Shown here: piece by piece, positions 48,864 to 64,000 of the stretch | Layout of the letters: each line of letters begins with the position of its first letter | Numbering within the stretch: the first letter of the stretch is position 1 | Source: a virus | Lineage: Duplodnaviria > Heunggongvirae > Uroviricota > Caudoviricetes | Reading direction: 5' to 3' (one strand) | Length of the DNA stretch: 64,000 bases | Virus record (IMG/VR): IMGVR_UViG_3300043399_000596 | Program-made: the position numbers and the translations under genes | The notes under the pieces: model-generated | What the model was told of the DNA's origin: nothing | Seen by the model: the letters and a program-made list of their open reading frames with translations, nothing else | Databases searched by the model: none

Positions 48864-48882
48864 ATTTTGGTAACATCTATGG

Positions 48883-49556: not shown

Positions 49557-49557
49557 T

Positions 49558-49776
49558 ATGCTACTTACTACTTTTCGTCGGAAATTAGTTCAGCGCAGAG
49601 ACTTTGATCCTTCTAACCCCGAAGATTTGAAAGAACTTAAGTATTTCAAAGATAACGGTAAATGGAGAGCGTCATGCCCTTTTTATCTAGAGGATCCGTA
49701 TGTTGAAGTGCCCGCGATGTGCGAGGGTAAGTTTACAACTTACATGCTTGACAAGTTAGTGAAAAGTAAGAAATAA
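49558..49776 (+). CDS. hypothetical small protein
   Basis: Internal Met right after the upstream stop. Confidence 0.4.
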   Translation: MLLTTFRRKLVQRRDFDPSNPEDLKELKYFKDNGKWRASCPFYLEDPYVEVPAMCEGKFTTYMLDKLVKSKK

Positions 49777-49801
49777 AAAAGCCCCTTAAGGGGCTTTTTT
49801 T
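49775..49801. terminator. bidirectional rho-independent terminator between the convergent early (+) and late (-) blocks
   Basis: 'aaaaaagccccttaaggggcttttttt': perfect GC hairpin flanked by A-run and T-run. Confidence 0.75.
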
Positions 49802-50636
49802 ACCACGTTGAAAGTGCCGCTCGTTTCCATGTATTGGTTGCAATACATATATAAACATAGGTACTGTCATATGCAATTTGTCCAGCAGTTCCGGTGTCTG
49901 ATGCTGTTGTAGGTACTGTGCTACTAATAGTCACATTCCCCCAATTCATTATACCATTACCGTCTTGTGTTAAGAATTGACCTACTGAACCTGCAGTATT
50001 GGGTAATTGCCAAAGTATGTAGGACGACCCGATGCTATTGGGACCCTGAAATGCAACAAATTTAGAGTTATCTGTTACTGTGTTTAATTTCAAGTAACCA
50101 GTATTTGCAATTACAGCAGAATTTGAGAAAGTGCCGTCTTTCATTGCTGTCGTACCCAGAGTTGCCGAAATGTTACCGGCAGTAAGGTTACCTACACTTG
50201 TGATTGTTCCAGTGGAATAAACGTTTCCTACGTTAGCTGTTCCAGTAACATTTGCGTTACCGGTAGCACTAATGCTGCCAGTAACAATAATATTACCTGT
50301 TAAAGTAAGATTAGAAGTTGTTTTATTGAATGTTAGGTTAGAGTTTCCAGCAAGACTTCCACCATCGTTAAATTGAACTTGTGTGTTTGCCCCGCCCGCA
50401 CTTGCTGAGTCAGCTCCCCAACTTAGCACACCTGAACCGTTTGTTTTTAACACTTGACCAGCACTTCCTCCGGTAATTGTAATATTACCTACGGCACCTA
50501 AATTTGCGCTAACGGTTACGTTTATGTTACCGACATTACTTATGTCTGAACCACCTAATTCTAAACTATCAGCAGACGGAAGTTCCTTAATCACGGATGA
50601 ACTTGAATCTACTACTAATGGGTATCTATTTGCCAT
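49800..50636 (-). CDS. tail fibre-like repeat protein
   Basis: Gly/Asn/Thr/Ser-rich quasi-repeats 'GNANVTGTANVGNVYSTGTITSVGNLTAGNISATLG'. Confidence 0.55.
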   Translation of the reverse strand: MANRYPLVVDSSSSVIKELPSADSLELGGSDISNVGNINVTVSANLGAVGNITITGGSAGQVLKTNGSGVLSWGADSASAGGANTQVQFNDGGSLAGNSNLTFNKTTSNLTLTGNIIVTGSISATGNANVTGTANVGNVYSTGTITSVGNLTAGNISATLGTTAMKDGTFSNSAVIANTGYLKLNTVTDNSKFVAFQGPNSIGSSYILWQLPNTAGSVGQFLTQDGNGIMNWGNVTISSTVPTTASDTGTAGQIAYDSTYVYICIATNTWKRAALSTW

Positions 50637-50659: not shown

Positions 50660-52000
50660 TCAACTCAATGAAATCTGAACAAGGGCACCGGTACGAGTTT
50701 CCAAAGTATACTTTCTTAGGACTACATCAGGTGGTGCAGAGACTGTACTTACTCCATCACGCAATGTGATAGTAAGATATTGGACTGGGATAGTTTTCCA
50801 TCCTAATGTCTGGGTACTAGCGTCCGCCGTAACTCCCAAAACTTGATAAATTGTTCCTGGTGAATCGGGAACATAAAAACTACTATCTTCTATCACTGAA
50901 GGTGTTACAAATGAGACAGAATTACCAGAAGAATTTAAAAATCTTACAGCACTGTCATCACCTACAATATTCAAAGTGTCCGATACATTTACGTTTGATG
51001 TAATATTCGCATTTCCCGAGATTTCAATATCAGTAAATGATGCGGCGTTGGGTGTATTATCACCTATGATACCGTCAAAATAACCACCTATATTTGCATT
51101 TAGTGTAGTAATATTGGCAGCATTAATTGTTGCTGTTCCGGTGACTTCAAAATCTACAGTCTCAATATATGAATTTGCAGTAAACGTATTGGCTACAATA
51201 TTACCTGCAACTTCAACATCATCGGGGATATCAATCGTAATATCACCTTCAGTTGTAACTGGTGATCCAGTAATAGTCAACGTGTTACTAGTTACATCAA
51301 TTCTAGTAACAGTGCCCAAATCACCGAAATTAGCATCGATGGTTACATTTCCAGTACTATTACTGATAGAGATATTGTTTCCTGCAGTAATAGCAGTAAC
51401 ACCAGTATTTTCAATCTCTATTGTACCACTACTTGTTATGGGACTATTTGTGATTTGTAAACCGTCACCTGTTGCTGTGATCGCCACACTAGTAACTGTG
51501 CCTATGCTCACGGTGTTTGCTATTTCAGTGATTCTACCGTAATTATCAACGGTTAGTGTTGGTGCAACATATTCCCCAGCAGCAAAAGCCGGGCCTGTTG
51601 GTATATACGGTAATTCTACATTAATCGTACCACTACTTACAATAGGAGAATCAGAAATTGTCAAAGTTTCGGAAGATAAAGCTACACTGGTTACAGTGCC
51701 GCCGGCGTTGCTTCCTCCACTAGAAGAAATTACTACATTACCATTAGAACTAGAAAGCGATATCCCAGTACCAGCAATAATGCTTACCACTCCAGTGTTT
51801 TCTATTTCTACGTTTCCAGTAGATGGATTTGTTGATATACCTATACCGGGGCTGCCGATAAAAGTGTCGTATGAACTAGCCCCATCAAATAATGTAGTGA
51901 AATTTTGTTGTATTTTAGTGAATGCTTCATAGAGAGTATCACTACCCGCAGCTTGATTTTCACCACCTATGTCGATGTTATTTTGTCCTGAAATAGCCAT
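50660..52000 (-). CDS. tail fibre protein
   Basis: 'IENTGVxxIxAGxxISxS' repeats; C-terminus 'TSDTGTAGQIAYDSTYVYICIATNTWKRAAL'. Confidence 0.6.
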   Translation of the reverse strand: MAISGQNNIDIGGENQAAGSDTLYEAFTKIQQNFTTLFDGASSYDTFIGSPGIGISTNPSTGNVEIENTGVVSIIAGTGISLSSSNGNVVISSSGGSNAGGTVTSVALSSETLTISDSPIVSSGTINVELPYIPTGPAFAAGEYVAPTLTVDNYGRITEIANTVSIGTVTSVAITATGDGLQITNSPITSSGTIEIENTGVTAITAGNNISISNSTGNVTIDANFGDLGTVTRIDVTSNTLTITGSPVTTEGDITIDIPDDVEVAGNIVANTFTANSYIETVDFEVTGTATINAANITTLNANIGGYFDGIIGDNTPNAASFTDIEISGNANITSNVNVSDTLNIVGDDSAVRFLNSSGNSVSFVTPSVIEDSSFYVPDSPGTIYQVLGVTADASTQTLGWKTIPVQYLTITLRDGVSTVSAPPDVVLRKYTLETRTGALVQISLS

Positions 52001-52026
52001 ATTCTAGTACCTTAATATAGTATTTA

Positions 52027-52578
52027 TCACAAATGTCTACCCCAACGGGTGTTGATGTGAGACCAATTCATTATCTTCCAGGTATTTTCTAGATATTCTT
52101 TTTTATCAGCTAGGTAATCAAGTGTCCAGGCATGTTCCCACCAGTCAACTAAAATTAATATGTCGTCACGAACTTCATGGTTTACGATTGTCTTTATTTC
52201 ACCGGTAAACGACATATATATCCAAGCAGAACCCTGAAGTTTCAATGCTTCTTCTTTGAATACTTCTTTGAAGTCACGCCACCATCCGTACTTTCTTTTT
52301 ATAAGATTCAGTACGGGTCCGTTAGGGGTATTATTTTCTTGTGGCTTACGAAACTGTGAAAAGTAGATATTATGTAGGAAAGCGCCAGCGTAATTAAAAT
52401 CGCTGTCGCCTTCTTTGTTCTTGTAACGTTTAACATACCCCTTTGCTAGGGTATCGTAATGTAATTCTAAAGTGGCTTTAGAAAGTACCGGACTTAGATC
52501 GGTGTAGGAATATTGGAGTGGTTCTAACTCTATCTGTTTCCTTCGGGATTCTTCTAATTTCTCTACAACGTCATACAT
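52027..52578 (-). CDS. Fe/Mn superoxide dismutase
   Basis: 'LEPLQYSYTDLSPVLSKATLELHYDTLAKGYV' and 'DWWEHAWTLDY' Fe/Mn-SOD signatures. Confidence 0.8.
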   Translation of the reverse strand: MYDVVEKLEESRRKQIELEPLQYSYTDLSPVLSKATLELHYDTLAKGYVKRYKNKEGDSDFNYAGAFLHNIYFSQFRKPQENNTPNGPVLNLIKRKYGWWRDFKEVFKEEALKLQGSAWIYMSFTGEIKTIVNHEVRDDILILVDWWEHAWTLDYLADKKEYLENTWKIMNWSHINTRWGRHL

Positions 52579-52592
52579 CGTAGAGTATTTAG

Positions 52593-52808
52593 TCAGCGAC
52601 GGCGCGTGATACGACCTTTTGTCAAGTCATATGGACTAAATTCAATTTCTACCGTGTCTCCTAGTAGAATCTTAATATCATGTTGCCGCATTTTGCCAGA
52701 GATATACCCCATAATAACGTTATCTCCGGGCATCTTGACCCTGAACATTGCATTGGGTAAAACTTCAGTTACTACCCCGTCCATTTTAAAACCTTCTTCT
52801 TTTGCCAT
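52593..52808 (-). CDS. infA: translation initiation factor IF-1
   Basis: 'DGVVTEVLPNAMFRVKMPGDNVIMGYISGKMRQHDIKILLGDTVEIEFSPYDLTKGRI' nearly collinear with E. coli InfA. Confidence 0.8.
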   Translation of the reverse strand: MAKEEGFKMDGVVTEVLPNAMFRVKMPGDNVIMGYISGKMRQHDIKILLGDTVEIEFSPYDLTKGRITRRR

Positions 52809-52826
52809 TTTAAGTTTGCTTTCTCC

Positions 52827-53126
52827 TTAAGTATAATTTGCTAATGGTTGGGCCTGAAGTTTGACCCACATAAACTGTTTCATTGCTTCTTCATTTTTGG
52901 TTACATAACCGTATAAGTTTTTTGCATCCATTCTATTTTTGACTATCCTGACGCCACCACGTGAACCTTGTGCCCATACTCTCTGACTGTATGACATACA
53001 GCGTCGGATCTTAGTGAAATATTCTACACGATAGGGAATAGAGATTACACCCTTAGGGAATTCAGGAGTGTAGTCACCTTCTATCTCACAATAATAAACA
53101 GTGTTACCCATGAACTGTCTCCGCAC
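52827..53126 (-). CDS. hypothetical protein, tandem paralog of 53104..53355
   Basis: Shared C-terminus 'MKQFMWVKLQAQ' / 'MKEFMWVKLSAE'. Confidence 0.4.
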   Translation of the reverse strand: MRRQFMGNTVYYCEIEGDYTPEFPKGVISIPYRVEYFTKIRRCMSYSQRVWAQGSRGGVRIVKNRMDAKNLYGYVTKNEEAMKQFMWVKLQAQPLANYT

Positions 53127-53355
53127 TGAGTTTGACCCACATGAATTCTTTCATGTCAACTGTTGCATTGGTTATATAGCGATGTTTGATAAACCAAACT
53201 GTACCTTCGTGTTCCATCCATGCTCGGTCACTGTGTTGTAGGTATAAAATTCGGTGTCTCGGAATAGGGGAGTTATCTACCCCATGCGAAACAAAATACT
53301 TTCTCCCGAATTTCGGGATAGCACAACCAGCGATTTCAAAGTATACATCAGCCAC
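53104..53355 (-). CDS. hypothetical protein, tandem paralog
   Basis: See 52827..53126. Confidence 0.4.
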   Translation of the reverse strand: MADVYFEIAGCAIPKFGRKYFVSHGVDNSPIPRHRILYLQHSDRAWMEHEGTVWFIKHRYITNATVDMKEFMWVKLSAETVHG

Positions 53356-53749
53356 GGCGCATCCTAGAGATATCTACAGCTTGCTCGGGGGAGAATACGG
53401 GTACAGCATTACCTTTGTGCATAGTAGCAATGCCTAGAACTTTGTCGCCGGTGTAGACTTTATGAACGGCAGCAGTAGAACCGCCCTCAGTTACACGGCT
53501 AGGAATGTGATTGGTTGTAGAACGACCTGCAGGCGCAGATAGTTTGTAGGTCAGTGGCTCAGCAGCCATAGCACGTTTGCGTTTCTTTTCGTCAGCTTCA
53601 ACGCCCCACTTTTTCTGTAGTTCGGCCCATGATGCATCAAGTTCACGTGCCTTACGTGCCTCGTCAGCATTGCGAAACTTTTGTTTACCTTTACGCTTGC
53701 CGCCCAGAGTTAGGGCAGGGTGTGCGAGGTGCATGGTCATAGATAGCAA
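53348..53749 (-). CDS. hypothetical basic protein
   Basis: ORF track; candidate TTGACA-17-TATACT promoter just upstream on the minus strand (~53770-53801). Confidence 0.4.
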   Translation of the reverse strand: MLSMTMHLAHPALTLGGKRKGKQKFRNADEARKARELDASWAELQKKWGVEADEKKRKRAMAAEPLTYKLSAPAGRSTTNHIPSRVTEGGSTAAVHKVYTGDKVLGIATMHKGNAVPVFSPEQAVDISRMRRG

Positions 53750-53815
53750 TCCATAGTTAGAAACATATTGATAGTATATACGCCATTACTTTATTTGTCA
53801 AGTACTACTCAAGTA

Positions 53816-54178
53816 TTACTTTTTGAGTATGCCCCAAACCTTCTCTTTTTCAATTAATTCAGCTTCAAGCTCCATGTAGGCTTTGCGTAGACCACGCAAG
53901 TTCTCCCACTTTTCTTCTAGCTCCTCGTTGGGTCTGAGAATTGCCAGTCGTTCTTCGATTCGTTCTAGTGATTCTGCTATGTCTTTGCCGCCGACTTTGA
54001 GATTGCCGGAAATGTCGGCATTTCCATTAACTTGCAATGTGTTACTTATTTGAGTTAGTGAGGTTGCAGTATTCATTACCCCAATATCATACGCATATGA
54101 AGATCCAGTAGCACCTGCGGAAATAGTATATGTATCAAAACCGTTAGCAGTATTTGTATAATCTATGTAGCTACTCAC
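53816..54178 (-). CDS. hypothetical protein (fibre-like N-terminus, coiled-coil C-terminus)
   Basis: ORF track. Confidence 0.4.
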   Translation of the reverse strand: MSSYIDYTNTANGFDTYTISAGATGSSYAYDIGVMNTATSLTQISNTLQVNGNADISGNLKVGGKDIAESLERIEERLAILRPNEELEEKWENLRGLRKAYMELEAELIEKEKVWGILKK

Positions 54179-54360
54179 TTGTTAGCCTTTCTAATGACAT
54201 AATTACCCTTATCATCTAAGTCAAATTCTACTTCATCACCCTCTTTCCAATCTAGTGCAGCAAGTAGTGCAGGTGGTATTGGTAACAATAAATCACCAGA
54301 ATCCTCGTCTTCTTGTACGGTAACTTCGTAGCTGATGTATTCGGTATTGTGCTTAGTCAT
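54175..54360 (-). CDS. AbrB/MazE/SpoVT-family swapped-hairpin domain protein
   Basis: 'LLLPIPPALLAALDWKEGDEVEFDLDDKGNYVIRK'. Confidence 0.5.
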   Translation of the reverse strand: MTKHNTEYISYEVTVQEDEDSGDLLLPIPPALLAALDWKEGDEVEFDLDDKGNYVIRKANK

Positions 54361-54364
54361 AATT

Positions 54365-54919
54365 TTAAATATTTATGTACGGACTATATATTCGTTCTAA
54401 TTCTTTTATAGTCAATTCTGCGGAATTAGGCACTTCAGATTCATCTTCATGTTTAACAGGAATACCGCCGGCGTCTGTCCATTTCTGAATATAAGGCCCG
54501 AAATCATCTACTAAAACGTTAGGTTTATCGTCAGTGATTGCGTACTGAAATTTTTTGCTAGTAAAAATGGCTTTATTGCTTGTTCCGGGAACATGAATGT
54601 CTAACCAATCTTTCTTGGCTTTCTTACTGTATTCAGCGTAAGGTCCGCGCAGAGGTGCAGATAAAATTGTGAAGGGGATATGATGTTGGTTCAACCACTC
54701 AACTATTTTTTTACCACCGGGTAAAGGCTTCAAGTTTAGGAAGAATTTGTATACTTCATCGGGGCTGCTGTGAGCTAATTCTTCGATTTCTTTTTCCTTA
54801 TCAGCGATTGCTCTCCAATGCGTGACGTTATGTTTTTCTGCCCAAGCTCCGAAGAAATCTGCTTGGACCCCATCCATATCTAGATATAAATGCGGAATTT
54901 TGTCGTGTGCGTTTTTCAT
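54365..54919 (-). CDS. HAD-superfamily 5'(3')-deoxyribonucleotidase
   Basis: 'LYLDMDGVQADF' DxDGV nucleophile motif of the NT5C family. Confidence 0.6.
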   Translation of the reverse strand: MKNAHDKIPHLYLDMDGVQADFFGAWAEKHNVTHWRAIADKEKEIEELAHSSPDEVYKFFLNLKPLPGGKKIVEWLNQHHIPFTILSAPLRGPYAEYSKKAKKDWLDIHVPGTSNKAIFTSKKFQYAITDDKPNVLVDDFGPYIQKWTDAGGIPVKHEDESEVPNSAELTIKELERIYSPYINI

Positions 54920-55279
54920 TTATCCTTCACCAGCTGCTGCTGTTTTTTCATCATCAGGGTCAACTTTTTTGTGAGTCATTGCTTTTTCGAATTTGTCTTT
55001 GGCTTCTGTCTCAACTTTTACTTGTTCCATAACTCGGTCAGATTCAATAATCTTACCACGTAAATGCAAGACTGTGTTGACTTTTTGGTTTAGTCTAATC
55101 AAGTCATTATCTAGCATTCGTATACGGTCTATAAGGGCAATAAGCACAGTGTTTGCTTCACTAATAACAGGCTTGACTTCTTTCGTACTCCACTCCCATA
55201 CATACTTGATAATATAGCCCATGCCCACTGACATAACTATAGGGAAACCATATTTGTTAATTAGTTCTACTACATCCAT
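54920..55279 (-). CDS. small membrane protein (holin-like), paralog of 55460..55786
   Basis: 'GFPIVMSVGMGYII...LDNDLIRL' vs 'GFPIAVALAGGYFV...MNHDVIRI'. Confidence 0.4.
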   Translation of the reverse strand: MDVVELINKYGFPIVMSVGMGYIIKYVWEWSTKEVKPVISEANTVLIALIDRIRMLDNDLIRLNQKVNTVLHLRGKIIESDRVMEQVKVETEAKDKFEKAMTHKKVDPDDEKTAAAGEG

Positions 55280-55463
55280 CTTCTACTCCCTTTAATATAA
55301 ATTCTTCTAGTTTGTCTACTTTTTTAAGATACCGCTTACCATCAATTATTACAAATTTAAAATAATCTCCGTCTTCCCAACCGAATTTTGCAAGATTCAA
55401 TTCGTCATCAAATGTGATACCCCAATCTTCTATATCCCAATCAAAATCTAAATGTTTCATCAA
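55257..55463 (-). CDS. hypothetical small acidic protein
   Basis: ORF track. Confidence 0.35.
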   Translation of the reverse strand: MMKHLDFDWDIEDWGITFDDELNLAKFGWEDGDYFKFVIIDGKRYLKKVDKLEEFILKGVEDGCSRTN

Positions 55464-55786
55464 TCACGCCTTGCATCGTTCTTACCATCTGAGCGGGCAA
55501 TACGATCTACGTCGGGCTTCAAACCTAAAGCGTTACTTACGATTGTGTCGATTCGGATAACATCGTGGTTCATTGTTTTTACTCGGTTATCTAAAGCAAC
55601 AATAATGCCCTTCATTCCATTGATACTACCCAAAACTCCTTGTAGAAGTAACTTTATAGTTAAGTATACAAAATAACCACCCGCCAATGCAACTGCTATG
55701 GGGAAACCCAAATCACCTATTAGTTTAAAAACATCACTCATAATACACCTCGTATGTAGACTGCTATATACTTTGATATAGGTCAA
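55460..55786 (-). CDS. small membrane protein (holin-like)
   Basis: TM segment 'LIGDLGFPIAVALAGGYFVYLTIKLLL'. Confidence 0.4.
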   Translation of the reverse strand: MTYIKVYSSLHTRCIMSDVFKLIGDLGFPIAVALAGGYFVYLTIKLLLQGVLGSINGMKGIIVALDNRVKTMNHDVIRIDTIVSNALGLKPDVDRIARSDGKNDARRD

Positions 55787-55823
55787 TTAAATATATATTG
55801 ATATATTTATCAGAGGCGCCTCA

Positions 55824-56369
55824 ATGAAACCAAGAATTATAATAGGCTTTCTTATGATGATGATTACGGCAGCTATTGCTGCACCATTGGGTGATTATCA
55901 GTTCAAAAGCCCATCATTTAACGGACAGGGATACAGTTCCCACACCCTAACGATTTATAACCTAGAACAACAAGCCGAAAAAGCTCGTGCTGACGCCGTA
56001 CAGGCTGCAATAGATAAAGCAGCATCAGCGCAAAATAGCACCAATTTACTGAAGTTCATAAACAACTTAGAAAGTCGTATATACGCACAAATTTCCCAAA
56101 ACGTAGCGACTGCTATGTTTGCTAACAATCAATGCAATACGTCAGATGCTACTACTAATTGTTCCGGGCAGATAAATTTCCAAGGAAATTATATTGGTTG
56201 GAGCAGAGTCAGTGACGCTAGTAACTGTGTAGGATCTCCAAATGGAACTTGCATTTTAATGAAAATCGGTGATAATACCGCTACTAACCCAGCAAGTGCA
56301 TTATGCACAGATATAGGAATGAGTTGTATATACATTCCTTTGTCTAGTTTTCAAATACCGGGGAACTAA
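55824..56369 (+). CDS. csgF: CsgF-like curli assembly protein (secreted)
   Basis: Signal peptide then 'DYQFKSPSFNGQG', matching the CsgF N-terminal 'TFQFRNPNFGGNP' CsgG-plugging motif; 'LLKFINNLESRIYAQISQ' ~ 'LDNFTQAIQSQILGG'. Confidence 0.5.
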   Translation: MKPRIIIGFLMMMITAAIAAPLGDYQFKSPSFNGQGYSSHTLTIYNLEQQAEKARADAVQAAIDKAASAQNSTNLLKFINNLESRIYAQISQNVATAMFANNQCNTSDATTNCSGQINFQGNYIGWSRVSDASNCVGSPNGTCILMKIGDNTATNPASALCTDIGMSCIYIPLSSFQIPGN

Positions 56370-56372
56370 TGT

Positions 56373-57170
56373 ATGAAGAACATGATATTAGTCCTAGTGG
56401 CAATTACTCTAAGTGGGTGTGCAATTACTCAGTTTAATCCTTTGACTCCGGAGATAAAACCTGAAGTATCTAAAGTAATGATGCAGAAGGAATTCGACAC
56501 TATTCCGGGCCCAAGTAATGGGAAGAAAATTAGTGTGGCTGTTTATAACTTTAGAGATTTAACTGGGCAGCGTAGACCTACTGCCAACATCGCTAGTTTA
56601 TCAACTGCGGTAACACAAGGTGCCGAAACATTTTTGATTAAAGCATTACAAGATGTTGGTCAAGGAAAATGGTTTGATGTTGTAGAACGTGTTGGCTTAG
56701 ATAACATAACAAAAGAACGTTTAATTATTCGCCAAATGCGTGAATCATACGAAGGTAAAGATGCCAAACCTTTGATGCCTATGCAATTTGCTGGTATCAT
56801 AGTAGAAGGCGGTATTGTAGGATATGACAGCAGCACGAAGTCAGGTGGAGTCGCAATGCGTTGGTTAGGCATTGGACCGCAAAGTCAATACTCTGAGGAT
56901 ATAGTAACTGTAAGTGTTCGTGCAATTTCAGTAAACACTGGAAAAGTGTTAACTTCAGTGACAGTACAAAAAACAATACTCAGTTCAGCAGATAGTGTTT
57001 CAGCATTAAGATTTTTTGATGCAGGTACAAGATCGTTTGAAGCAGAAATGGGTATGACAATAAACGAACCAGGGACCTACGCTGTTAAATCAGCTATTGA
57101 AGCAGCCGTTGTTGAGTTAATCAAAGACGGCGAAAGAAAAGGTTTATGGGGGTACATAAAAGAAGAATAA
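56373..57170 (+). CDS. csgG: curli production assembly/transport lipoprotein CsgG
   Basis: Lipobox 'LSGC'; 'ISVAVYNFRDLTGQRRP', 'FAGIIVEGGIVGYDSSTKSGGVAMRWLGIGPQSQYSEDIVTVSVRAISVNTGKVL' collinear with E. coli CsgG. Confidence 0.8.
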   Translation: MKNMILVLVAITLSGCAITQFNPLTPEIKPEVSKVMMQKEFDTIPGPSNGKKISVAVYNFRDLTGQRRPTANIASLSTAVTQGAETFLIKALQDVGQGKWFDVVERVGLDNITKERLIIRQMRESYEGKDAKPLMPMQFAGIIVEGGIVGYDSSTKSGGVAMRWLGIGPQSQYSEDIVTVSVRAISVNTGKVLTSVTVQKTILSSADSVSALRFFDAGTRSFEAEMGMTINEPGTYAVKSAIEAAVVELIKDGERKGLWGYIKEE

Positions 57171-57206
57171 TAACAAAAAGATGCATAAGCATCCGGGAGA
57201 ACTAAA

Positions 57207-58157
57207 ATGGTTAAACCATATAAAAATATAATAGCATTACTAATAAGTGCAATGGTTTCTTTCAACGGCATTGCCGCTGACAACAGTGTGTATATAGACC
57301 AAGCAGGGGATAATAGTACAATAACTATTACTCAAGATGGTTCTAGTAATAAAGTAAAGGGAATTCTGATCAACGGAACGCCCGGAGGCACTACAGATTC
57401 TGCTAAGTTAGCAGGTGATGCCCAAACAGTTAACATTCAACAAACGGGTACTAATAACGTATTGTCTTTGGGGATTACTTCTACGCAAGGTGGCACAGTA
57501 CCAAATTATACTAACATCGGTGCTAATTTGAATTATGAAGTAACTGGTAGCAACAACACAGGTTACATTAACGTTAACAACAACGGGTTAGGTACTTCAG
57601 CAGGCAACGTGATTGGAATTACGCAAGACGGTGGGGGTAATGTTGATTTACGTATGACAGGTACAAGCAATCAACTATCATACACTTCAGCAGGCGGAAG
57701 TGGTAACAAGCTAACAGCAAATATCAATGCAAGCGAAACAGTAACAACTATTAATCAGACTGGTGGTGGCGGAAATGAAACTACAGTAAGTATGACAGGT
57801 AACAAAGGTCAAGTATTAATTGCTAGTATCGGTGCTGCTAACTTGATTGACATTAATCAGAGCGGTGGTGGAGTTAATGGTGCTACAGTGAATATAAATC
57901 TTACTGGTAGTGGTAACGACACTACAGTTACTCAAAGTGGTTTATACGATAACATATTTAACTATACCGGCACTGGCAGCAACAACGTAATTGTTTTGGC
58001 TCAGAGCGGTGGCGCTAGTGCAGGACAAAATACTCAACTACTAATTAACGGATCAAGCAATAATTTGTCAATTACCCAACAGGGATCAGTTGATAATTTG
58101 TCAAATGTTAAAATAACAGGAAATAATAATAGCTATACCATACTACAGAAAAACTAA
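57207..58157 (+). CDS. curlin-repeat (CsgA/CsgB-like) secreted protein
   Basis: Signal peptide; repeated 'x-I-x-Q-x-G-x-x-N' units ('VYIDQAGDNS', 'VNIQQTGTNN', 'TINQTGGGGN', 'IDINQSGGGVN', 'LSITQQGSVDN'). Confidence 0.55.
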   Translation: MVKPYKNIIALLISAMVSFNGIAADNSVYIDQAGDNSTITITQDGSSNKVKGILINGTPGGTTDSAKLAGDAQTVNIQQTGTNNVLSLGITSTQGGTVPNYTNIGANLNYEVTGSNNTGYINVNNNGLGTSAGNVIGITQDGGGNVDLRMTGTSNQLSYTSAGGSGNKLTANINASETVTTINQTGGGGNETTVSMTGNKGQVLIASIGAANLIDINQSGGGVNGATVNINLTGSGNDTTVTQSGLYDNIFNYTGTGSNNVIVLAQSGGASAGQNTQLLINGSSNNLSITQQGSVDNLSNVKITGNNNSYTILQKN

Positions 58158-58158
58158 C

Positions 58159-59268
58159 ATGAAATTATGTAACGTATTAATTTTTCTTTGTTTCTCAGCA
58201 GCGGCATCAATTTGTAATGCCGCTATTGGCACAGTAACAGAACAAGTTAATGCAGTGGCTACTATTCAAAGAGACAAAGCATCATTACAGGGGACAAAAG
58301 GGTTTAGTGTTGAAATGAATGATGCCATAAAAACCCAACAAGGTAAAGTAGGTATCACATTTGAAGATAGTACACGTGTTCAAGTTAATGAAAATTCTAA
58401 ACTAGTAATTGATGATTTTGTTTATGATCCAAAAAATAAAGCAGGTAAACTTGGTGCTAAAGTCGCTCTTGGCACAGTTAGGTACGCTAGTGGAGCCATT
58501 GCTCACAACAACCCTAGATCCGTTTCACTTAATACTCCTAGTGCTACTATTGCTGTCCGCGGTACAGATTTTACTGCCACTGTAGAAGAACTTGGTGAAT
58601 CAACTATAATTTTATTACCTAGTTGTCCAAATGATCGTCCTACTAGAACAGTAAAAGATATTGAGGCTGCTTGTAAGACAGGAGAAATTGAAGTTATAAC
58701 TGATGTTGGATCTGTTATATTAAACCAACCATTTCAAGTGACTAAAGTAAATAGCAGGAGCGATCAACCCACCAAGCCTGTTATATTAAATTTGTCTGAG
58801 ATGGCAATTAGTAATTTATTGATATTGAGTCCCCCGAAAGAGATCAAAAATTCACAAGCAGCAGAGACAAAAATTTGGAATCCGCTAGACTTTAATGCAC
58901 TAGACAAAGATGAATTAAAGAATGCACTAGACGAACAAAACAAACAATTCTTCTACGCTCAATTAGAAAGAAACTTTTTATCCAATAGCTTTTTAGCAAG
59001 CCTATTTGACATTATAGGTAATGCGTTGAATGAAAATTTGTTAGCACAGATTGATTCCGTAATACCGGATTACAGAAAAAGTAGTGGAATCGTAGTAGTA
59101 AAAGAAGATCCAACTATACAATTATGTAGAGACAGTGGCGCTGATATACAGTGCATAACTACACCATTAACTCAAAACTCAACATTGTACCAAACACAAG
59201 GTACGTTAGAGTTTAAGAACCGCATCAATAATGGTGGCAATACAATTATTACAGTGGTACAAAGATGA
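58159..59268 (+). CDS. FecR-domain secreted protein
   Basis: Signal peptide; 'GTVRYASGAIAH...SATIAVRGTDFTATV' FecR-type beta-sandwich motif. Confidence 0.45.
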   Translation: MKLCNVLIFLCFSAAASICNAAIGTVTEQVNAVATIQRDKASLQGTKGFSVEMNDAIKTQQGKVGITFEDSTRVQVNENSKLVIDDFVYDPKNKAGKLGAKVALGTVRYASGAIAHNNPRSVSLNTPSATIAVRGTDFTATVEELGESTIILLPSCPNDRPTRTVKDIEAACKTGEIEVITDVGSVILNQPFQVTKVNSRSDQPTKPVILNLSEMAISNLLILSPPKEIKNSQAAETKIWNPLDFNALDKDELKNALDEQNKQFFYAQLERNFLSNSFLASLFDIIGNALNENLLAQIDSVIPDYRKSSGIVVVKEDPTIQLCRDSGADIQCITTPLTQNSTLYQTQGTLEFKNRINNGGNTIITVVQR

Positions 59269-60527
59269 AGAAATTTCTTCTTGGATTAGTGTTATCTTTG
59301 TGCAGTATCGCATCTTGGGCTGTAAGTTTCACGGATTTAAAATTTGGTCAGTATCAAATTGCAGATTCTCAATGGGATGTTGGTGCTTGCTTATATACTT
59401 CCACTTGTAACATATATTACACTCAGCCCGGAACAATGTATACTATTCCTTGGTATAACGGGCAATGGAGCTGGCAAGCCGGGCAATACGTTAAATTTTC
59501 CCTAAGCGGCAATTCTTCTTATCCTTACACAGCTAATGTTTATAACAGCAACGGAACGTTAGCAGGAACAGTGGGGACTGGTAAAATTATAAACATGGGT
59601 GTTGACTCAAATGGATACGCTCTATTCTTCTTTGTCGGTAATGATGATAATACAGGACAATTGTTTAGTGCTAACTACGGTATGACAGGAAATAGCGGAT
59701 ATTCTTGGACTGGTACTTTAAACCCTACATTATCACAAGTTGATTCGTTTGCTAACAGTTATGGTAGTACATCTCCACTTGCATCCGGACAAACATACAC
59801 GGCTACTCCAACACCATCAGGACCCACTATCACCGGTGGAACAATCACACAAACGAACAGTCCTGGTACAGAAGTCATAACAAGCGGTAGTTCTAGTACA
59901 GCAGGTCCATCCAATGCACAGACTACATCTCAAACAAATTGGAGTACTAATGCTAATCCAAGCAATGTGAATAATTATCTTTACATAGACCAAGTTAGCG
60001 GGAACTATAATTCTGTTACGATTACTCAGTCTGGATCAAAAAACACAATGTATTTAGGACTCAACGGTAGTAGCAATACAGTGTCCGCAGACCAAACAGG
60101 GACTAATTATTTGAATGGTCTAGTGCAAGGAACGCAAAATCAATTAACATCTTCGCAATCCAACACCGCAGGATCGAATTACCAAGAAACTAAAATAATG
60201 AGCAATACTTATACGGGTAATACTATCAATGCCACACAGATAGGAAATGGTAATAACTTAATGTTTAACACTATTAACGGTAGTAACAATACTATTACTG
60301 CTAGTCAATCAGGTTCCGGCAATCATTATTTAGAAAACAAGTTAACAGGCAACGGAAATACAGTTCTATCTTCTCAAACAGGTTCTACAGGGAACAATGC
60401 TAACGTTGATTTAACTAATGCGGGTGGTCCTGCAAGTCTGGACCTTCAACAATCAGGTGGGAAGAACTTTACTATTATACAAAGTTGCACTAATCCCGCA
60501 GGATGCACTACTGTGATAAGACAATAA
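59265..60527 (+). CDS. second curlin-repeat secreted protein with non-repeat N-terminal domain
   Basis: Signal peptide; C-terminal half has 'YIDQVSGNYN', 'VTITQSGSKN', 'VSADQTGTNY', 'INATQIGNGNN', 'ITASQSGSGNH', 'LDLQQSGGKN'. Confidence 0.5.
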   Translation: MKKFLLGLVLSLCSIASWAVSFTDLKFGQYQIADSQWDVGACLYTSTCNIYYTQPGTMYTIPWYNGQWSWQAGQYVKFSLSGNSSYPYTANVYNSNGTLAGTVGTGKIINMGVDSNGYALFFFVGNDDNTGQLFSANYGMTGNSGYSWTGTLNPTLSQVDSFANSYGSTSPLASGQTYTATPTPSGPTITGGTITQTNSPGTEVITSGSSSTAGPSNAQTTSQTNWSTNANPSNVNNYLYIDQVSGNYNSVTITQSGSKNTMYLGLNGSSNTVSADQTGTNYLNGLVQGTQNQLTSSQSNTAGSNYQETKIMSNTYTGNTINATQIGNGNNLMFNTINGSNNTITASQSGSGNHYLENKLTGNGNTVLSSQTGSTGNNANVDLTNAGGPASLDLQQSGGKNFTIIQSCTNPAGCTTVIRQ

Positions 60528-60570
60528 AACTAGATTTATATATTACACTAAATATAGTAAAGGAGAAATT

Positions 60571-61104
60571 ATGTCAGAGAAAAAACCATTATCTAGAAGC
60601 GAGAGAGAAGCAAAAATAAAAGATAAAGCAGGGTGGGTAATCACCGTAATTGCTGCACTACTTGCGGTAAATACTTATATTTCTAACGGTAACTCTAGTA
60701 AAGTATTAAACAACACAATTAAAGCCAATGATACTTGGAGTTTCTACCAAGCTAAATCAATCAAACAAACACTAGCTGAGCAAAGTTTAGATGATGCGAT
60801 AGCCCGCGGTGATAAAGAAAAAGCTGAAAAACTAAAAGCCAAGATTGCACGTTATGAATCTGAACCTGAAACTGGTGAAGGAAAGAAAGAACTAATGGCA
60901 AAAGCACGTGCTTTAGAAGCTGAGAGAGATCATATCCGTAAGTCAGGTCCATGGATGACGTTTAGCGGTATGTCATATCAATTGGGTATTGTTTTATTGT
61001 CAGCTAGTATTCTAGCTGTTAGTATGCCACTATTCTGGGGGAGTATTGCTGTTAGTGGAATAGGTGCGATTTTAATGAGCCAAGGTATTTGGCTTTGGAT
61101 GTAA
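60571..61104 (+). CDS. membrane protein (N-terminal TM, charged coiled-coil core, two C-terminal TM)
   Basis: 'GWVITVIAALLAV...' and 'LGIVLLSASILAVSMPLFWGSIAVSGIGAILM'. Confidence 0.4.
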   Translation: MSEKKPLSRSEREAKIKDKAGWVITVIAALLAVNTYISNGNSSKVLNNTIKANDTWSFYQAKSIKQTLAEQSLDDAIARGDKEKAEKLKAKIARYESEPETGEGKKELMAKARALEAERDHIRKSGPWMTFSGMSYQLGIVLLSASILAVSMPLFWGSIAVSGIGAILMSQGIWLWM

Positions 61105-61108
61105 AATT

Positions 61109-61315
61109 ATGAGTACGTATAATCAACAAGCAATTATAGACAAATTTAACAGAATGCGTGAATTTACTATTGAAGTTGAGGTACCCGAAGGTAAGCAACT
61201 CAGCGGTGTAATACCTTATGAGCCACTTGTCTCACAAAACAAGGGTAGATTCAAAATATACGCAACAAGTTACGATGAGGCACACGAAATAGTTTCTAAA
61301 TATCTTAATGCATAA
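61109..61315 (+). CDS. hypothetical small protein
   Basis: ORF track. Confidence 0.4.
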   Translation: MSTYNQQAIIDKFNRMREFTIEVEVPEGKQLSGVIPYEPLVSQNKGRFKIYATSYDEAHEIVSKYLNA

Positions 61316-61318
61316 TAT

Positions 61319-61340
61319 GGCCCCGAAAGGGGCCTTTTTT
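61319..61340 (+). terminator. rho-independent terminator
   Basis: 'ggccccgaaaggggcc' hairpin followed by T6. Confidence 0.7.
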
Positions 61341-61353
61341 ATAGGAGAAAGTT

Positions 61354-61500
61354 ATGAGCTGGTATAGAAAAAGTCCAAGAGTCAAAGAACCACCTAAGCA
61401 TTTACCCCATCATAGGACAAGTCCTGCTACTGAAAAAATGCTAGAAGCAGCTAAGAAAACAGTTAAAGAAACAGGTAAGGTTCCAAAAAATCATAAATAA
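61354..61500 (+). CDS. small basic protein (48 aa, below track cutoff)
   Basis: SD 'ataggagaaagttATG'; 'MSWYRKSPRVKEPPKHLPHHRTSPATEKMLEAAKKTVKETGKVPKNHK'. Confidence 0.35.
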   Translation: MSWYRKSPRVKEPPKHLPHHRTSPATEKMLEAAKKTVKETGKVPKNHK

Positions 61501-61553
61501 TAGATTATAGTGAAATTACCTTATATGGTGGTGGCACTACAAGAGAACACCAC

Positions 61554-63617
61554 ATGAAAAAAATAATTAAAAAACTTCTACTAAGTCCGTGGACTGCTTT
61601 AGCAACATTGGCCTTAATTATCGGAGTAAGAGCAACAGATCCTACATTTGTTGAAAGTGTACGATTAAGATATTTTGATACTCTTATTGTTAGTAAAGAA
61701 ATTACCCAAAATAATATTATCACTGTTAACATTGACGAAGATAGTTTATCAAAATACGGTCAATGGCCATTACCCAGAGGTGAATATGGAAAAATCATCG
61801 AAGAATTATATAAAAAGAACGCCGGTCTTGTTGTGTTTAATGTGCTTATGCCTAATCCTGATAGAAGTGGCCAAGACGATAGGTTTGCACAGTATCTAAA
61901 CAAATATCCTGTTATACTACCTAGTAGTCCTGCCGAACAAACAAAAAACAAACCAAGAAATCCTGGAAGTGCAGTAGTTGGTAGCCAACACACTGACATG
62001 ATTGTTCAGTATCCGGGGCTAATTGCAAATACTCCCATAGTAGAAAATGCGGCAGCTGGTATAGGCATCACAAATACGTTACCTGAAATAGACGGTGTTA
62101 ATCGCAGAATTCCATTAGTGATAACAGTAGACGGAAAAATCTATCCTAGCTTGAGTATAGAGACATTACGAGTAGCTGCTGGTGATAGTACTGTTCAAGT
62201 TAAACTTAATGAACTTGGCGTAGAAAAGATGCGTATACCAAAATTTGGTCCTATTGCAACAGATAGTTTAGGTCGTATTTGGATTGATTACAGCCAGAAA
62301 AGTCAAAGCTACAGTTTGACAAACTTACCAAAAGATTTGAATGGCGCAATAGTAATTGTCGGTACCACTGCTGCTGGATTAAGTAATCCTGTACCAACGA
62401 GCATTGGTGCAGTATTCCCACATGAATTACAAGCAAGTGTCATAGGCACTATGATGAATGGTGTTGTAATTCAAAGACCTGATTACGCTGACGGTTTAGA
62501 AATAATCGCAATAGCAGTAATGGGTATAATTTTATTATTCTTAACGAGGTATATATATGTCGGGTTGGCGTCGGTTATTATTATATGTGTTGGCGTGGTT
62601 GTTGGTAGCCAGTATATGTTCAGCAACTATCTATTTTTATTTGATGCAACTGCCGTTCTTAGTGGCACAGTCTTGGTCTCTTTGCATGCCTATGGTGTCA
62701 AGTTTATAAGCGAATTTTTACAGAAACAACAAATAAAGAAACAATTTGGAACATATTTGAGTCCTGCACTTGTAGAGAAGTTACAGAAGAATCCTGAACT
62801 ACTGACATTGGGCGGCGAGTCACGTGAACTTTCAATTATGTTTACAGACGTTAGAGGCTTCACCGGTATTAGTGAGCATTACGGTAAAGATGTACAAGGC
62901 TTAACATCAATAATGAACAGATACATGACCGCAATGACTGCTAAGATATTGGAGAACGAAGGTACACTAGATAAGTATATAGGGGATGCACAAATGGCTT
63001 TCTGGAACGCGCCATTGGATGATCCAAGACACGCACACAATGCGGTGAGGACTGCAATCTCTATGTTAGGGAGTTTAGATGCGTTCAATATGGAAATTGC
63101 TAAAGAAGGTGTACCGGCATTTGGTATGGGTTTGGGAATTAACACCGATACTGTTGTTGTTGGAAATATGGGGTCTAGTCAGAGGTTTGACTATACTTGT
63201 CTCGGTGACGGCGTTAATCTTGCTAGCCGTTTGGAGGGACAGTCTAAGCCCTATGGTGTCAGAATTGTTATCGGTGCTCTAACCGCTGAAAAAATTAAAG
63301 ATGAATATTTTGTATTAGAACTAGATTGCATCGCAGTTAAAGGTAAAACACAAGGGGTCAATATATTCACAGTCCTAGAAACAGATAGTAACTCTATGGT
63401 CGAATATCTACAGACACGAGAATTGCATGACTTGATGTTAGCCCATTATCGTGAACAAAAATGGAGTAGTGCGTTAAATCTTCTAGAAAAACTCAAAGGT
63501 GAGTTTGATAGTAATATGGACCACTACTATGATATGATGATTGAAAGAATAGGAGAACTTCGTGAAGCTAATTTACCTAATGATTGGGATGGTGTCTATC
63601 GCGCCACTAGTAAGTAA
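61554..63617 (+). CDS. CHASE2 sensor domain-containing class III adenylate/guanylate cyclase
   Basis: N-terminal TM plus periplasmic CHASE2-like region, 3-4 TM helices, then the cyclase core 'SIMFTDVRGFTGISE', 'KYIGDAQMAFWNAP', 'GVNLASRLEG'. Confidence 0.75.
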   Translation: MKKIIKKLLLSPWTALATLALIIGVRATDPTFVESVRLRYFDTLIVSKEITQNNIITVNIDEDSLSKYGQWPLPRGEYGKIIEELYKKNAGLVVFNVLMPNPDRSGQDDRFAQYLNKYPVILPSSPAEQTKNKPRNPGSAVVGSQHTDMIVQYPGLIANTPIVENAAAGIGITNTLPEIDGVNRRIPLVITVDGKIYPSLSIETLRVAAGDSTVQVKLNELGVEKMRIPKFGPIATDSLGRIWIDYSQKSQSYSLTNLPKDLNGAIVIVGTTAAGLSNPVPTSIGAVFPHELQASVIGTMMNGVVIQRPDYADGLEIIAIAVMGIILLFLTRYIYVGLASVIIICVGVVVGSQYMFSNYLFLFDATAVLSGTVLVSLHAYGVKFISEFLQKQQIKKQFGTYLSPALVEKLQKNPELLTLGGESRELSIMFTDVRGFTGISEHYGKDVQGLTSIMNRYMTAMTAKILENEGTLDKYIGDAQMAFWNAPLDDPRHAHNAVRTAISMLGSLDAFNMEIAKEGVPAFGMGLGINTDTVVVGNMGSSQRFDYTCLGDGVNLASRLEGQSKPYGVRIVIGALTAEKIKDEYFVLELDCIAVKGKTQGVNIFTVLETDSNSMVEYLQTRELHDLMLAHYREQKWSSALNLLEKLKGEFDSNMDHYYDMMIERIGELREANLPNDWDGVYRATSK

Positions 63618-63876
63618 CGCAGAGATAATAGAACACAATATCAAAATATCCTGTGATGATACTTCTATTATCTTCAATACCTTGAAGAAAGATTACAAAG
63701 AAATACCATTTGTGTTGGGGAAAACAAGTGACATTGCAAATACAGTAATGTCACTATGGGTTAATCCCGCTTCAAAAACTTGGACTATACTGTCTACAAA
63801 AAATGATATAACTTGCGTTATTGGTGTGGGTGATAAGTTAGAATTGATAGTACCAAAGGCTGGTTCAACTCATTAA
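63562..63876 (+). CDS. secreted small protein
   Basis: Signal peptide 'MIGMVSIAPLVSNA'; the true start is probably an internal Met. Confidence 0.4.
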   Translation: MKLIYLMIGMVSIAPLVSNAEIIEHNIKISCDDTSIIFNTLKKDYKEIPFVLGKTSDIANTVMSLWVNPASKTWTILSTKNDITCVIGVGDKLELIVPKAGSTH

Positions 63877-64000
63877 AAATGCTAGCAGCAAATAGACTAA
63901 TTGGTGCGCCATTTGGTCTAGTCCTAAATGGTTCCAAAATTGGGGTGTGCTGATATCACGATTACCATAGTTCATTTTAGTCCAATCGATATGATAATGT

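Follow-up and report, generated by a model that had tools for sequence, protein, structure and literature searches.

A curli-type (type VIII) secretion module in a T4-like lineage of large phages

Introduction

Genes of the curli, or type VIII, secretion system (T8SS) have been described in several marine phages. The "curli operon" of pelagimyophages was reported as the first set of phage type VIII secretion genes, and "sibling capture" was proposed for it (Zaragoza-Solas 2020, PMC7029224). In Methylophilales phage Melnitz, CsgG and CsgF were modelled, the modelling suggested a diverged CsgF, and a role in the timing of lysis was proposed (Buchholz 2022, PMC9004378). A full module has been described in both podo- and myophages, comprising a protein labelled HK, CsgF, CsgG, CsgA/B, FecR, a second CsgA/B and an adenylate cyclase; it lacks CsgE, shows an alphaproteobacterial affinity, and occurred at every one of the 65 GOV2.0 stations, and its transcripts have been detected at sea (Wittmers 2022 mSystems, PMC9599517). 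In ocean viromes, the literature figure for phage curli modules is ~0.1% of assembled viral proteins. Two of these papers called csgA and csgB missing, for Melnitz and the pelagimyophages. In the present study, we analysed a stretch of 64,000 nt (hereafter the window) from the IMG/VR virus record IMGVR_UViG_3300043399_000596 (Caudoviricetes), in which five csg-type open reading frames (ORFs) lie on the plus strand at 55824-60527. A previous sequence-only reading had recognised a curli-type cluster at this position and had regarded virus-encoded amyloid export as an undescribed phage function. The latter claim fails, since Pelagibacter phage HTVC008M and Melnitz carry an annotated module that was discussed in papers of 2020-2022. 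The module is thus already published in marine phages, and the window holds a further copy from a related T4-like lineage of large phages. We regard it as very nearly certain that the region is the known viral T8SS module.

Results and Discussion

Layout of the module and comparison with described systems

In Melnitz (MZ577097), gp97 to gp104 are annotated as two hypothetical proteins, CsgF, CsgG, a curlin associated repeat protein, a FecR domain protein, a second curlin associated repeat protein and an adenylate/guanylate cyclase, and the gene order is the same in HTVC008M (NC_020484, gp011 to gp019). Eight proteins of the window match this module in order, counted from the membrane protein next to csgF, at 57 (gp97), 48 (gp98), 33 (gp99), 46, 28, 39 (gp102), 30 and 40% identity (gp104). 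The features of the module are given below; throughout, cleavage sites, signal peptides and lipoboxes are by-eye readings of the sequence, and the Pfam matches of the five ORFs at 55824-60527 each exceed the gathering score of the family.

54920..55279, minus strand: small membrane/coiled-coil protein, paralogue 2, 119 aa; phrog_18771 match, as for paralogue 1
55257..55463, minus strand: 68-aa ORF between the two paralogues, kept in 22/80 IMG/VR loci
55460..55786, minus strand: small membrane/coiled-coil protein, paralogue 1, 108 aa as listed; alignments with relatives begin near Met16
55824..56369, plus strand: CsgF-like protein with signal peptide, N-terminal CsgG-binding motif and Cys-rich C-terminal extension
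56373..57170, plus strand: CsgG outer-membrane lipoprotein channel; Pfam CsgG 7.2e-50
57207..58157, plus strand: 316-aa secreted curlin-repeat protein, candidate major fibre subunit; beta-solenoid model with ~12 rungs
58159..59268, plus strand: secreted FecR-domain protein; Pfam FecR 5.2e-10, residues 56-148
59265..60527, plus strand: second curlin protein, 420 aa, with signal peptide, N-terminal globular domain, Thr/Ser/Pro-rich linker and C-terminal curlin repeats
60571..61104, plus strand: DUF4337 membrane protein, a variable passenger in the operon; Pfam DUF4337 1.4e-28
61109..61315, plus strand: 68-aa ORF, last gene ahead of the terminator; no family match
61319..61344, plus strand: terminator-like hairpin GGCCCCgaaaGGGGCC followed by T6, from an intrinsic-terminator scan and reading of the sequence
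61554..63617, plus strand: CHASE2-sensor class III adenylate cyclase, a membrane receptor; Pfam CHASE2 1.1e-41, Guanylate_cyc 7.7e-17

The sequence-only reading had described five consecutive plus-strand genes with signal peptides or a lipobox at 55824-60527. Its coordinates are exact, all five N-termini read as a Sec signal or a lipobox, and its five gene identities stand. The limits that it drew are too narrow, because the membrane pair (54920-55786) and the CHASE2 cyclase recur with the csg genes in related loci; the conserved unit is 54920-63617.

The gaps between genes from csgF to the 68-aa ORF at 61109-61315 are 3, 36, 1, -4, 43 and 4 nt, and csgF is 37 bp from the divergent membrane-protein gene. 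The hairpin at 61319..61344 is probably the end of a transcription unit that runs from csgF to this 68-aa ORF, and the cyclase gene begins a further 210 nt past it. Between the terminator and the cyclase gene there is an unlisted basic ORF of 48 aa (MSWYRKSPRVKEPPKH…; 61355-61501, plus strand) with a good ribosome-binding site. In a motif search of the window, no copy of its strong promoter type was found near the curli module, and a generic sigma-70 promoter scan of the window performed no better than on shuffled sequences.

Like the window, the modules of Melnitz and HTVC008M (both Kyanoviridae) hold the same proteins in the same order, at 28-57% identity, and lack CsgE, CsgC and CsgD. Several differences are observed. 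In the window, the membrane pair has the opposite orientation and is transcribed away from csgF, the DUF4337 and 68-aa genes are inserted ahead of the cyclase, and CsgF has a Cys-rich C-terminal extension. The major curlin has 316 aa in the window compared with 239 in Melnitz and 228 in HTVC008M. Outside the module, the window and Melnitz have only Hsp20, deoxyribonucleotidase and FEN in common, and the window's lineage, unlike the two phages, carries DnaK, ClpX, ClpP and ClpS, and some of its contigs measure 190-373 kb. The T8SS of HTVC023P-type pelagipodophages, compared here by its published description, has the same composition and no CsgE; these phages differ from the window in belonging to another virus family, in their small genomes, and in missing the second curlin and the cyclase more often (PMC9599517).

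Compared with the CsgBAC-CsgDEFG system of E. coli, the window has in common the CsgG lipobox, the N-terminal motif of CsgF and beta-solenoid subunits made of curlin repeats. It differs in having no CsgE, CsgC or CsgD, in ~12 subunit rungs rather than 5, in a second curlin with a large N-terminal domain (the E. coli nucleator is CsgA-sized), in the added FecR protein, cyclase and membrane pair, and in scores below the NCBIfam equivalog cut-offs for CsgG, CsgA and CsgB.

CsgF and CsgG

The first plus-strand gene had been read as a CsgF-like protein with a plug-like mature N-terminus, and this is borne out. Pfam CsgF is matched at 3e-7 (31.1 bits compared with a cut-off of 25.8), the N-terminus reads MKPRIIIGFLMMMITAAIA|AP (here and below, the bar marks the by-eye cleavage site), and the motif YQFKSPSFNG aligns with FQFRNPNFGG of E. 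coli. Residues F27, P30, F32 and G34 are invariant among the window, Melnitz, HTVC008M and E. coli. Published CsgG-CsgF structures place the N-terminal peptide of CsgF inside the CsgG barrel; the window's CsgF has a peptide of this type and is predicted to bind in the same way. Because phmmer of CsgF against the PDB found no CsgF match, its membership in the family is taken from Pfam and the motif.

The CsgG lipoprotein had been called collinear with that of E. coli, and residues 3-260 do align with solved E. coli CsgG in the PDB (E 5.8e-48), with 41% identity over the whole length. The N-terminus, ...AITLSGC, ends in an LSGC lipobox of which G15 and C16 are invariant in 11 sequences. The NCBIfam equivalog score is 175.9 bits and does not reach the cut-off of 505. 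Judged by these profile scores, the window's CsgG is therefore a member of the family and not an equivalog of the enterobacterial protein. A look-up of the exact CsgG protein sequence returned nothing on record.

Curlin-repeat proteins

The I-x-Q-x-G-x-x-N repeats ascribed to the 316-aa protein are confirmed in the sequence, and Pfam Curlin_rpt is matched at 6.9e-6 (26.4 bits, cut-off 20.7). Its N-terminus reads ...VSFNGIA|AD. A model built with 43 homologues has 25 regular strands, a predicted local distance difference test (pLDDT) score of 82.4 and a predicted template modelling (pTM) score of 0.82; a Foldseek search with this repeat-fold model was unsuccessful. The Q, N and G positions are invariant in the homologues. 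Because the solenoid model is confident and these positions are invariant, we consider the protein a credible fibre subunit with a predicted CsgA-type solenoid, and the model weakens the published view that csgA and csgB are missing.

The fifth gene had been read as curlin-like in its C-terminal half, and this also holds: Curlin_rpt is matched at residues 246-279 (1.4e-6), and the 316-aa protein is homologous to the C-terminal half of this 420-aa protein (E 3e-6). The N-terminus reads ...CSIASWA|VS and is followed by a globular domain with no assigned fold (about residues 20-165), and the curlin repeats cover about residues 235-420. The N-terminal extension amounts to 215 aa, and the CsgB equivalog model matched only the 316-aa protein (18.4 bits compared with 165). 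In close homologues, an F5/8 type C (discoidin) domain is inserted between the two parts, and in gp018 of HTVC008M a PA14 domain precedes the curlin repeats. The second curlin is thus a fusion of an N-terminal domain with curlin repeats, of modular architecture. This architecture suggests a fibre that displays binding domains; to extend this to the window's own N-terminal domain is a guess. None of the terms PA14, discoidin, lectin, carbohydrate and adhesin occurs in the main text of Wittmers et al. (PMC9599517). The 420-aa protein is 100% identical to P0241, a protein encoded on two contigs, one from JGI (95,814 bp) and one from Logan. In hundreds of metagenomic homologues, the operon retains both curlin-repeat genes, and the residues of the Q/N/G ladder are invariant.

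FecR protein and CHASE2 cyclase

The fourth gene encodes, as had been proposed, a FecR-domain protein. It begins ...AAASICNA|AI, and the signal peptide is its sole hydrophobic segment, so that both a membrane anchor and an anti-sigma domain are lacking. More than 6000 homologues were found, of which the best 120 listed are 64-93% identical. The cyclase has hydrophobic, predicted transmembrane segments at residues 7-26 and 310-378, is 38% identical to gp019 of HTVC008M, and lies within 10 kb of csgG in 53/80 IMG/VR loci. Its best solved relatives are CyaB (3r5g, 1.3e-26) and CyaC (1wc0), and the motifs FTD, K-Y-I-G-D, D-Y-T and V-N-L-A-S-R are kept as in these two. The cyclase has Lys and Thr where the substrate is bound, which in class IIIb cyclases points to ATP.

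FecR-domain proteins adjoin CHASE2 receptors in Burkholderia, other Burkholderiales and P. aeruginosa PAO1, and a Burkholderia operon consists of a response regulator, a LysM-FecR protein and a CHASE2 kinase (PMC5192318). In S. meliloti, the CHASE2 adenylate cyclase CyaD1 (SMc02176) and the FecR-domain protein SMc02177 are neighbours by locus number (PMC5498481). The window resembles these systems, S. meliloti CyaD1 and the Burkholderia BiofilmReg operon, in that an exported FecR-domain protein is encoded beside a CHASE2 membrane receptor, a likeness of gene arrangement. As in S. meliloti, the output of CHASE2 is an adenylate cyclase; in Burkholderia it is a histidine kinase, and the FecR protein there also has a LysM domain. 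Unlike the window, the bacterial systems have no link to curli genes. Because FecR-domain proteins adjoin CHASE2 receptors in bacteria, we think that the FecR protein and the cyclase probably form one sensor cassette joined to the curli operon, by analogy of gene neighbourhood, rather than an iron regulator.

The FecR domain has also been read in another way. In an uptake model discussed in PMC7029224 (Zaragoza-Solas 2020) and PMC9599517 (Wittmers 2022), an ungated CsgG would admit nutrients or cofactors and FecR would report iron status, and both the absent CsgE gate and the presence of a FecR domain agree with it. However, a true FecR has a membrane anchor and a cytoplasmic anti-sigma part, both of which are missing here; FecI and FecA were found neither among the module proteins nor in the annotated regions of Melnitz and HTVC008M; and FecR domains occur together with CHASE2 in systems that have nothing to do with iron (PMC5192318, PMC5498481). 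The uptake model also leaves CsgF unexplained and accounts poorly for the conserved curlin genes, and we judge it very unlikely. Ferric-citrate signalling of the FecR/FecI/FecA type was rejected on the same grounds, a periplasmic FecR domain alone with no anti-sigma part and no FecI or FecA in the module.

The cyclase itself might instead be the core of the region, acting in a Pycsar-like defence or manipulating host cAMP-CRP, with the curli genes incidental. Its catalytic domain matches the PycC models of PADLOC (1.3e-22), it is among the best-conserved parts of the module, and it lies downstream of the terminator, where it may be a separate transcription unit. The PycC match, however, reflects the shared class III catalytic domain, since CyaB/CyaC match better and the Lys/Thr residues are of the purine type. 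Moreover, the module has no cyclic-nucleotide-binding effector and no other protein that matches PADLOC, the CHASE2 sensor and the linkage to FecR point to envelope sensing, and the order with the csg genes is kept in myo- and podophages (PMC9599517), which argues for one functional unit. A cyclic-nucleotide defence or counter-defence is in our estimate more improbable still than uptake, and the Pycsar anti-phage system was rejected as an assignment, the PycC match being generic and the effector missing from the module.

Small membrane proteins upstream of csgF

The sequence-only reading had placed "holin-like" proteins in the flank of the cluster. A weak N-terminal match to the holin family phrog_4898 is real, but the pair belongs to the conserved module and is not a mere flank. 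Paralogue 1 has one hydrophobic segment (residues 22-48), is 49% identical to gp011 of HTVC008M, and has no INPHARED matches beyond Melnitz and HTVC008M. Among the IMG/VR relatives, its identity ranges from 26% (L048) to 91%, with 60-91% in most loci where it is detected. Paralogue 2 is 29% identical to paralogue 1 (E 2e-11), and lies within 10 kb of csgG in 33/80 IMG/VR loci, at up to 83% identity. The pair is present in ~30 of the 80 loci, mostly at 60-91% identity, which is above that of CsgG itself.

In the literature on the viral T8SS, the small upstream proteins are labelled "HK" (PMC9599517). This histidine-kinase label was not reproduced: neither HisKA nor HATPase_c was found in the 108- and 119-aa proteins, where Pfam at E<=1 gave only YvrJ (0.0052, sub-threshold) and BcsQ (0.12) and no profile-profile search was made, and proteins of this length are too short for a kinase core.

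Absent curli components

CsgE and CsgD had been reported as absent. Apart from these two, the genes for curli secretion and assembly are nearly complete. No CsgC homologue was found in the window by tblastn, and no CsgD is present. An ORF of the LuxR/GerE type does exist at 25437-26312 (Pfam GerE 5.1e-16), as had been noted, but the suggested link to the csg cluster is not supported, as the ORF is absent from the flanks of related loci. It was rejected as a substitute for CsgD, with which it shares the helix-turn-helix alone, and it lies on the strand opposite to the module and 30 kb away. CsgE is also absent from alphaproteobacterial curli systems (PMC9599517), and is therefore not universal in the family.

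Distribution and viral context

With the CsgG protein as query, at least 80 IMG/VR loci were collected, and CsgF, CsgG, the first curlin and FecR stand in the same order in nearly all of 80 loci. Because the same gene set and order recur in this way, the cluster is not a chance grouping. Among cultured phages, tblastn found CsgG, the membrane protein and the cyclase in Melnitz and HTVC008M only, with one extra CsgG match in a record of 1.5 kb that is labelled Salmonella phage. At the nucleotide level, 52000-64000 matched nothing in INPHARED by megablast. The closest relatives, with the same layout, are the metagenomic contigs L142, whose FecR protein is 88% identical, and L145, whose 420-aa protein is 100% identical. 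Both also carry the DUF4337 gene, which is found near the module in 4/80 IMG/VR loci, and both have a gene of the same size at the position of the 68-aa ORF at 61109-61315.

Bacterial and archaeal genomes, one per species, were scanned by CsgG alignment and two short peptide patterns, a procedure that may miss distant versions, and 52 loci were returned. CsgG at 41-48% identity was found in isolates of Pseudovibrio, Methylobacterium, Mesorhizobium, Nitratireductor, Azospirillum, Agrobacterium and Rhizobium, and alphaproteobacterial curli systems (Pseudovibrio, Methylobacterium, Mesorhizobium, Nitratireductor, Agrobacterium) provide the closest CsgG among cultured bacteria. Like the window, these systems are without CsgC, CsgD and CsgE (PMC9599517). 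Unlike the window, the cultured isolates among the 52 loci showed no phage-type CsgF, FecR protein, CHASE2 cyclase or membrane pair at a distance of up to 10 kb from csgG. The set, in full or for the most part, was found only on contigs of metagenome-assembled genomes (MAGs), assigned to Pirellulales, Polynucleobacter, Rhodobacteraceae, Luteolibacter, Bacteroidetes, Legionellales and Cellvibrio. T4-like phage genes or genes of the phage clade lie on several of these contigs, including a T4-like DNA polymerase and UvsX (L098), homologues of Melnitz structural genes (L093), and Hsp20 with ClpS (L090, L092), and we read the module-bearing MAG contigs as phage contigs placed in bacterial bins. Seven such contigs from GTDB species-representative MAGs of unrelated groups (L090, L092, L093, L098, L120, L129, L134) look like reference-genome contamination.

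A viral genome context had been proposed, and it has firm though indirect support from T4-like relatives, shared flank genes and gene style. The 64 kb of the window hold 113 ORFs, which are short and closely spaced and for the most part have no Pfam or PHROG family; tRNA genes, rRNA genes and Rfam families were not found. It carries auxiliary genes of phage type, namely an ATP-dependent ligase (phrog_114), QueD, QueE, a MazG-type pyrophosphohydrolase, FEN, UvdE and a deoxyribonucleotidase (NT5C). Homologues of 44 window genes in all, ~30 of them outside the module, occur in the flanks of the IMG/VR loci, including DnaK, Hsp20, ClpS, ClpX and a 502-aa coiled-coil protein. In some related loci, a T4-like DNA polymerase, gp41 helicase, gp59 loader, gp32 and UvsX stand beside the module. 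In longer relatives, of up to 373 kb, ribosomal protein S21, DnaK, Hsp20, ClpS, heme oxygenase and bilin reductase lie just upstream of csgF. The window's lineage appears to be one of large T4-like phages distinct from the described pelagiphages.

An ordinary curli operon on a bacterial chromosomal island is the reading that a bacterial origin would require. It could draw on the window's DnaK, ClpX, ClpP, ClpS, Hsp20, superoxide dismutase and LuxR regulator, on the missing capsid and terminase genes, and on those relatives that are filed in bacterial MAGs. However, these chaperone genes are also found around the module on IMG/VR contigs and on the 373-kb contig, which is made of small genes. 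The MAG contigs belong to seven taxa with no relation to one another, several of them bear T4-like phage or phage-clade genes (a T4-like DNA polymerase in L098, for example), and the set is missing from the isolates. The dense, mostly family-less ORFs, the missing tRNA and rRNA genes, the phage-type ligase, QueD/QueE, FEN and NT5C, and six near-identical consensus promoters in the window likewise argue against it, and we consider a bacterial island the most improbable of the alternatives weighed here.

With regard to genome size, L143 (ERZ936032 contig, 372,995 bp) and contigs with P0140, P0190 and P0130 (295-350 kb) carry module relatives among small genes. These contigs of 295-373 kb hint that the lineage includes jumbo phages, or that assemblies were concatenated. 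Heme oxygenase and bilin reductase adjoin csgF in L143 and L087-L089.

Proposed mechanism

From the gene identities, the contact motif, the solenoid model, the operon layout and the conservation of the set in phages, we infer how the module might work. First, the host Sec system would export all the plus-strand products during infection. Second, lipidated CsgG would form an outer-membrane channel, in which CsgF would dock via its conserved N-terminal motif. Third, the 316-aa curlin would be secreted unfolded and would stack as beta-solenoid fibres on the infected cell, and the second curlin would co-assemble via its C-terminal repeats, where it would either nucleate the fibre or serve to display its own N-terminal domain. 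Fourth, the periplasmic FecR-domain protein may work with the CHASE2 sensor, through which a signal from the envelope or from outside would be converted to cAMP. The pay-off for the phage would most likely be a changed cell surface, serving the adhesion or aggregation of host cells or as a shield against other phages. That the module really builds extracellular fibres is argued from homology, and the balance tips only slightly in favour of this step. The account as a whole, namely a known T8SS module in a T4-like lineage that places fibres on the infected cell, couples them to cAMP and changes the cell surface, seems to us fairly probable. Decoration of virions by the products was considered and rejected, because the module products carry Sec signals and virions would assemble in the cytoplasm.

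Several points weigh against this account. The constriction loop of E. coli CsgG, PYPASNF, aligns with PTANIASL in the window's CsgG. CsgE gave no tblastn match to the E. coli protein in the window and no family match among the module proteins, and the NCBIfam equivalog scores for CsgA and CsgB are ~18 bits compared with cut-offs of 160-165. To our knowledge, fibres have not been demonstrated experimentally for any phage module. Cells infected with Melnitz showed no clumping by cytometry or transmission electron microscopy (Buchholz 2022, PMC9004378). The missing clumping is the main evidence against aggregation, and is silent on fibre formation itself. The proposed partnership of FecR and CHASE2 is drawn from gene neighbourhood, and SMc02177 of S. 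meliloti is not needed for signal perception (PMC5498481). Finally, the 64-kb window has no portal gene and neither of the genes, capsid and terminase, that the sequence-only reading had named as a check of viral origin; on that check the viral nature is carried by the relatives, with their T4-like replication genes and shared genes, and by the gene style.

Some of these points would suit a module that makes a pore and no fibre. In this alternative, CsgG with or without CsgF acts as a gated outer-membrane pore that times lysis in a pinholin- or secretin-like manner (Buchholz 2022). The missing clumping in Melnitz cultures and the diverged CsgF suggested by modelling (PMC9004378), the altered constriction residues of CsgG, the absence of CsgE, and the membrane pair with its weak holin match and sub-threshold YvrJ are all in keeping with it. 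However, the retention of two curlin genes across hundreds of homologues, with their invariant Q/N/G ladder, is poorly accounted for by lysis timing, the major curlin models as a CsgA-type solenoid, and the invariant CsgF motif argues against CsgF and CsgG having parted. In addition, an outer-membrane pore of ~1-1.5 nm would not by itself depolarise the inner membrane. We consider the pore-only alternative unlikely, and prefer the fibre-exporting module set out above.

A more far-reaching version of the fibre-exporting module may also be put forward, which we hold to be speculative and rather doubtful. The module might provide a programmable sticky surface with feedback, in which the adhesin-curlin fusion, borne on a CsgA-type fibre, sets through its variable N-terminal part what the infected cell sticks to, a FecR/CHASE2 cassette of the CyaD1 type reports the state of fibre or envelope as cAMP, and the membrane pair is a separate, non-kinase component; such a module, not confined to pelagiphages, might be widespread in large T4-like phages of other habitats and hosts.

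Through the module, infected cells would gain machinery at their surface of which some hosts have none. The find is not a new discovery, but the copy in the window is well preserved, comes from another lineage of large phages, and is useful as experimental material. How the domains of the second curlin are arranged, and the reading of FecR with CHASE2, add modestly to what is known and make the function of the module easier to test. The questions thereby sharpened are whether fibres form, what ligand the variable domain of the second curlin binds, and whether the FecR protein communicates with the CHASE2 cyclase.

Other features of the window

An early-promoter array had been proposed for the flanks, and six near-identical promoters of the sigma-70 type, TTGACAATAAAT-N3-TTTGGGCATAYAAT, were indeed found on the plus strand, where none is expected by chance:

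26458-26486, plus strand: promoter copy
44631-44659, plus strand: promoter copy
45649-45677, plus strand: promoter copy
45944-45972, plus strand: promoter copy
46603-46631, plus strand: promoter copy
47180-47208, plus strand: promoter copy

The copies cluster at 44.6-47.2 kb, in a stretch with poor-looking ORFs, and within the scanned 44500-49900 the palindrome TACAATACATGTATTGA follows the promoter in five copies. An array of early promoters with operators is the probable explanation. Neither strand of the window has a copy of the T4-type late-promoter motif TATAAATA, for which 6.45 +/- 2.48 copies are expected.

Genes for protein quality control are grouped in 36444-44585:

36444-37640: ClpX-like ATPase
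37964-39850: DnaK
39868-40359: Hsp20
40398-40730: ClpS
43965-44585: ClpP

In many related contigs, DnaK, Hsp20 and ClpS stand directly upstream of csgF, and Hsp20 and ClpS lie within 10 kb of csgG in ~70/80 loci. The position of these chaperone genes near csgF may be mere synteny or may be tied to the handling of amyloid-prone subunits.

Flanking tail fibres had also been noted; PHROG "tail fiber" matches exist, but they cover the collagen repeat alone, and the label is weak. Two minus-strand ORFs in this region, 22334-22960 and 23828-24490, have an apparently similar C-terminal domain, and one of them has a collagen-like G-P-P run. Among these collagen-like and tail-fibre-like genes (22334-24490) sits a minus-strand ORF at 22965-23351, with no family match, in which an extreme Tyr/Trp/Asp-rich stretch (…YYPYHHYWYYDDWYYDDWYYHDWYWDYDDWYYDDYYYDWDWDY…) is followed by a Pro-rich tail.

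Genes for a 7-deazaguanine precursor are found at 5309-9068, including QueD (7268-7756) and QueE (8202-9068), both by PHROG, together with a MazG-type pyrophosphohydrolase (7928-8215) and, by eye, a GTP cyclohydrolase I-like ORF (5309-6037), which suggests modification of DNA or nucleotides. A membrane protein of the SPFH/Band 7 type is encoded at 31581-32426 (plus strand, Pfam 3.1e-28), and an ORF at 52027-52578 (minus strand) resembles Fe/Mn superoxide dismutase, as read by eye and from the Pfam label on an identical gene in L145.

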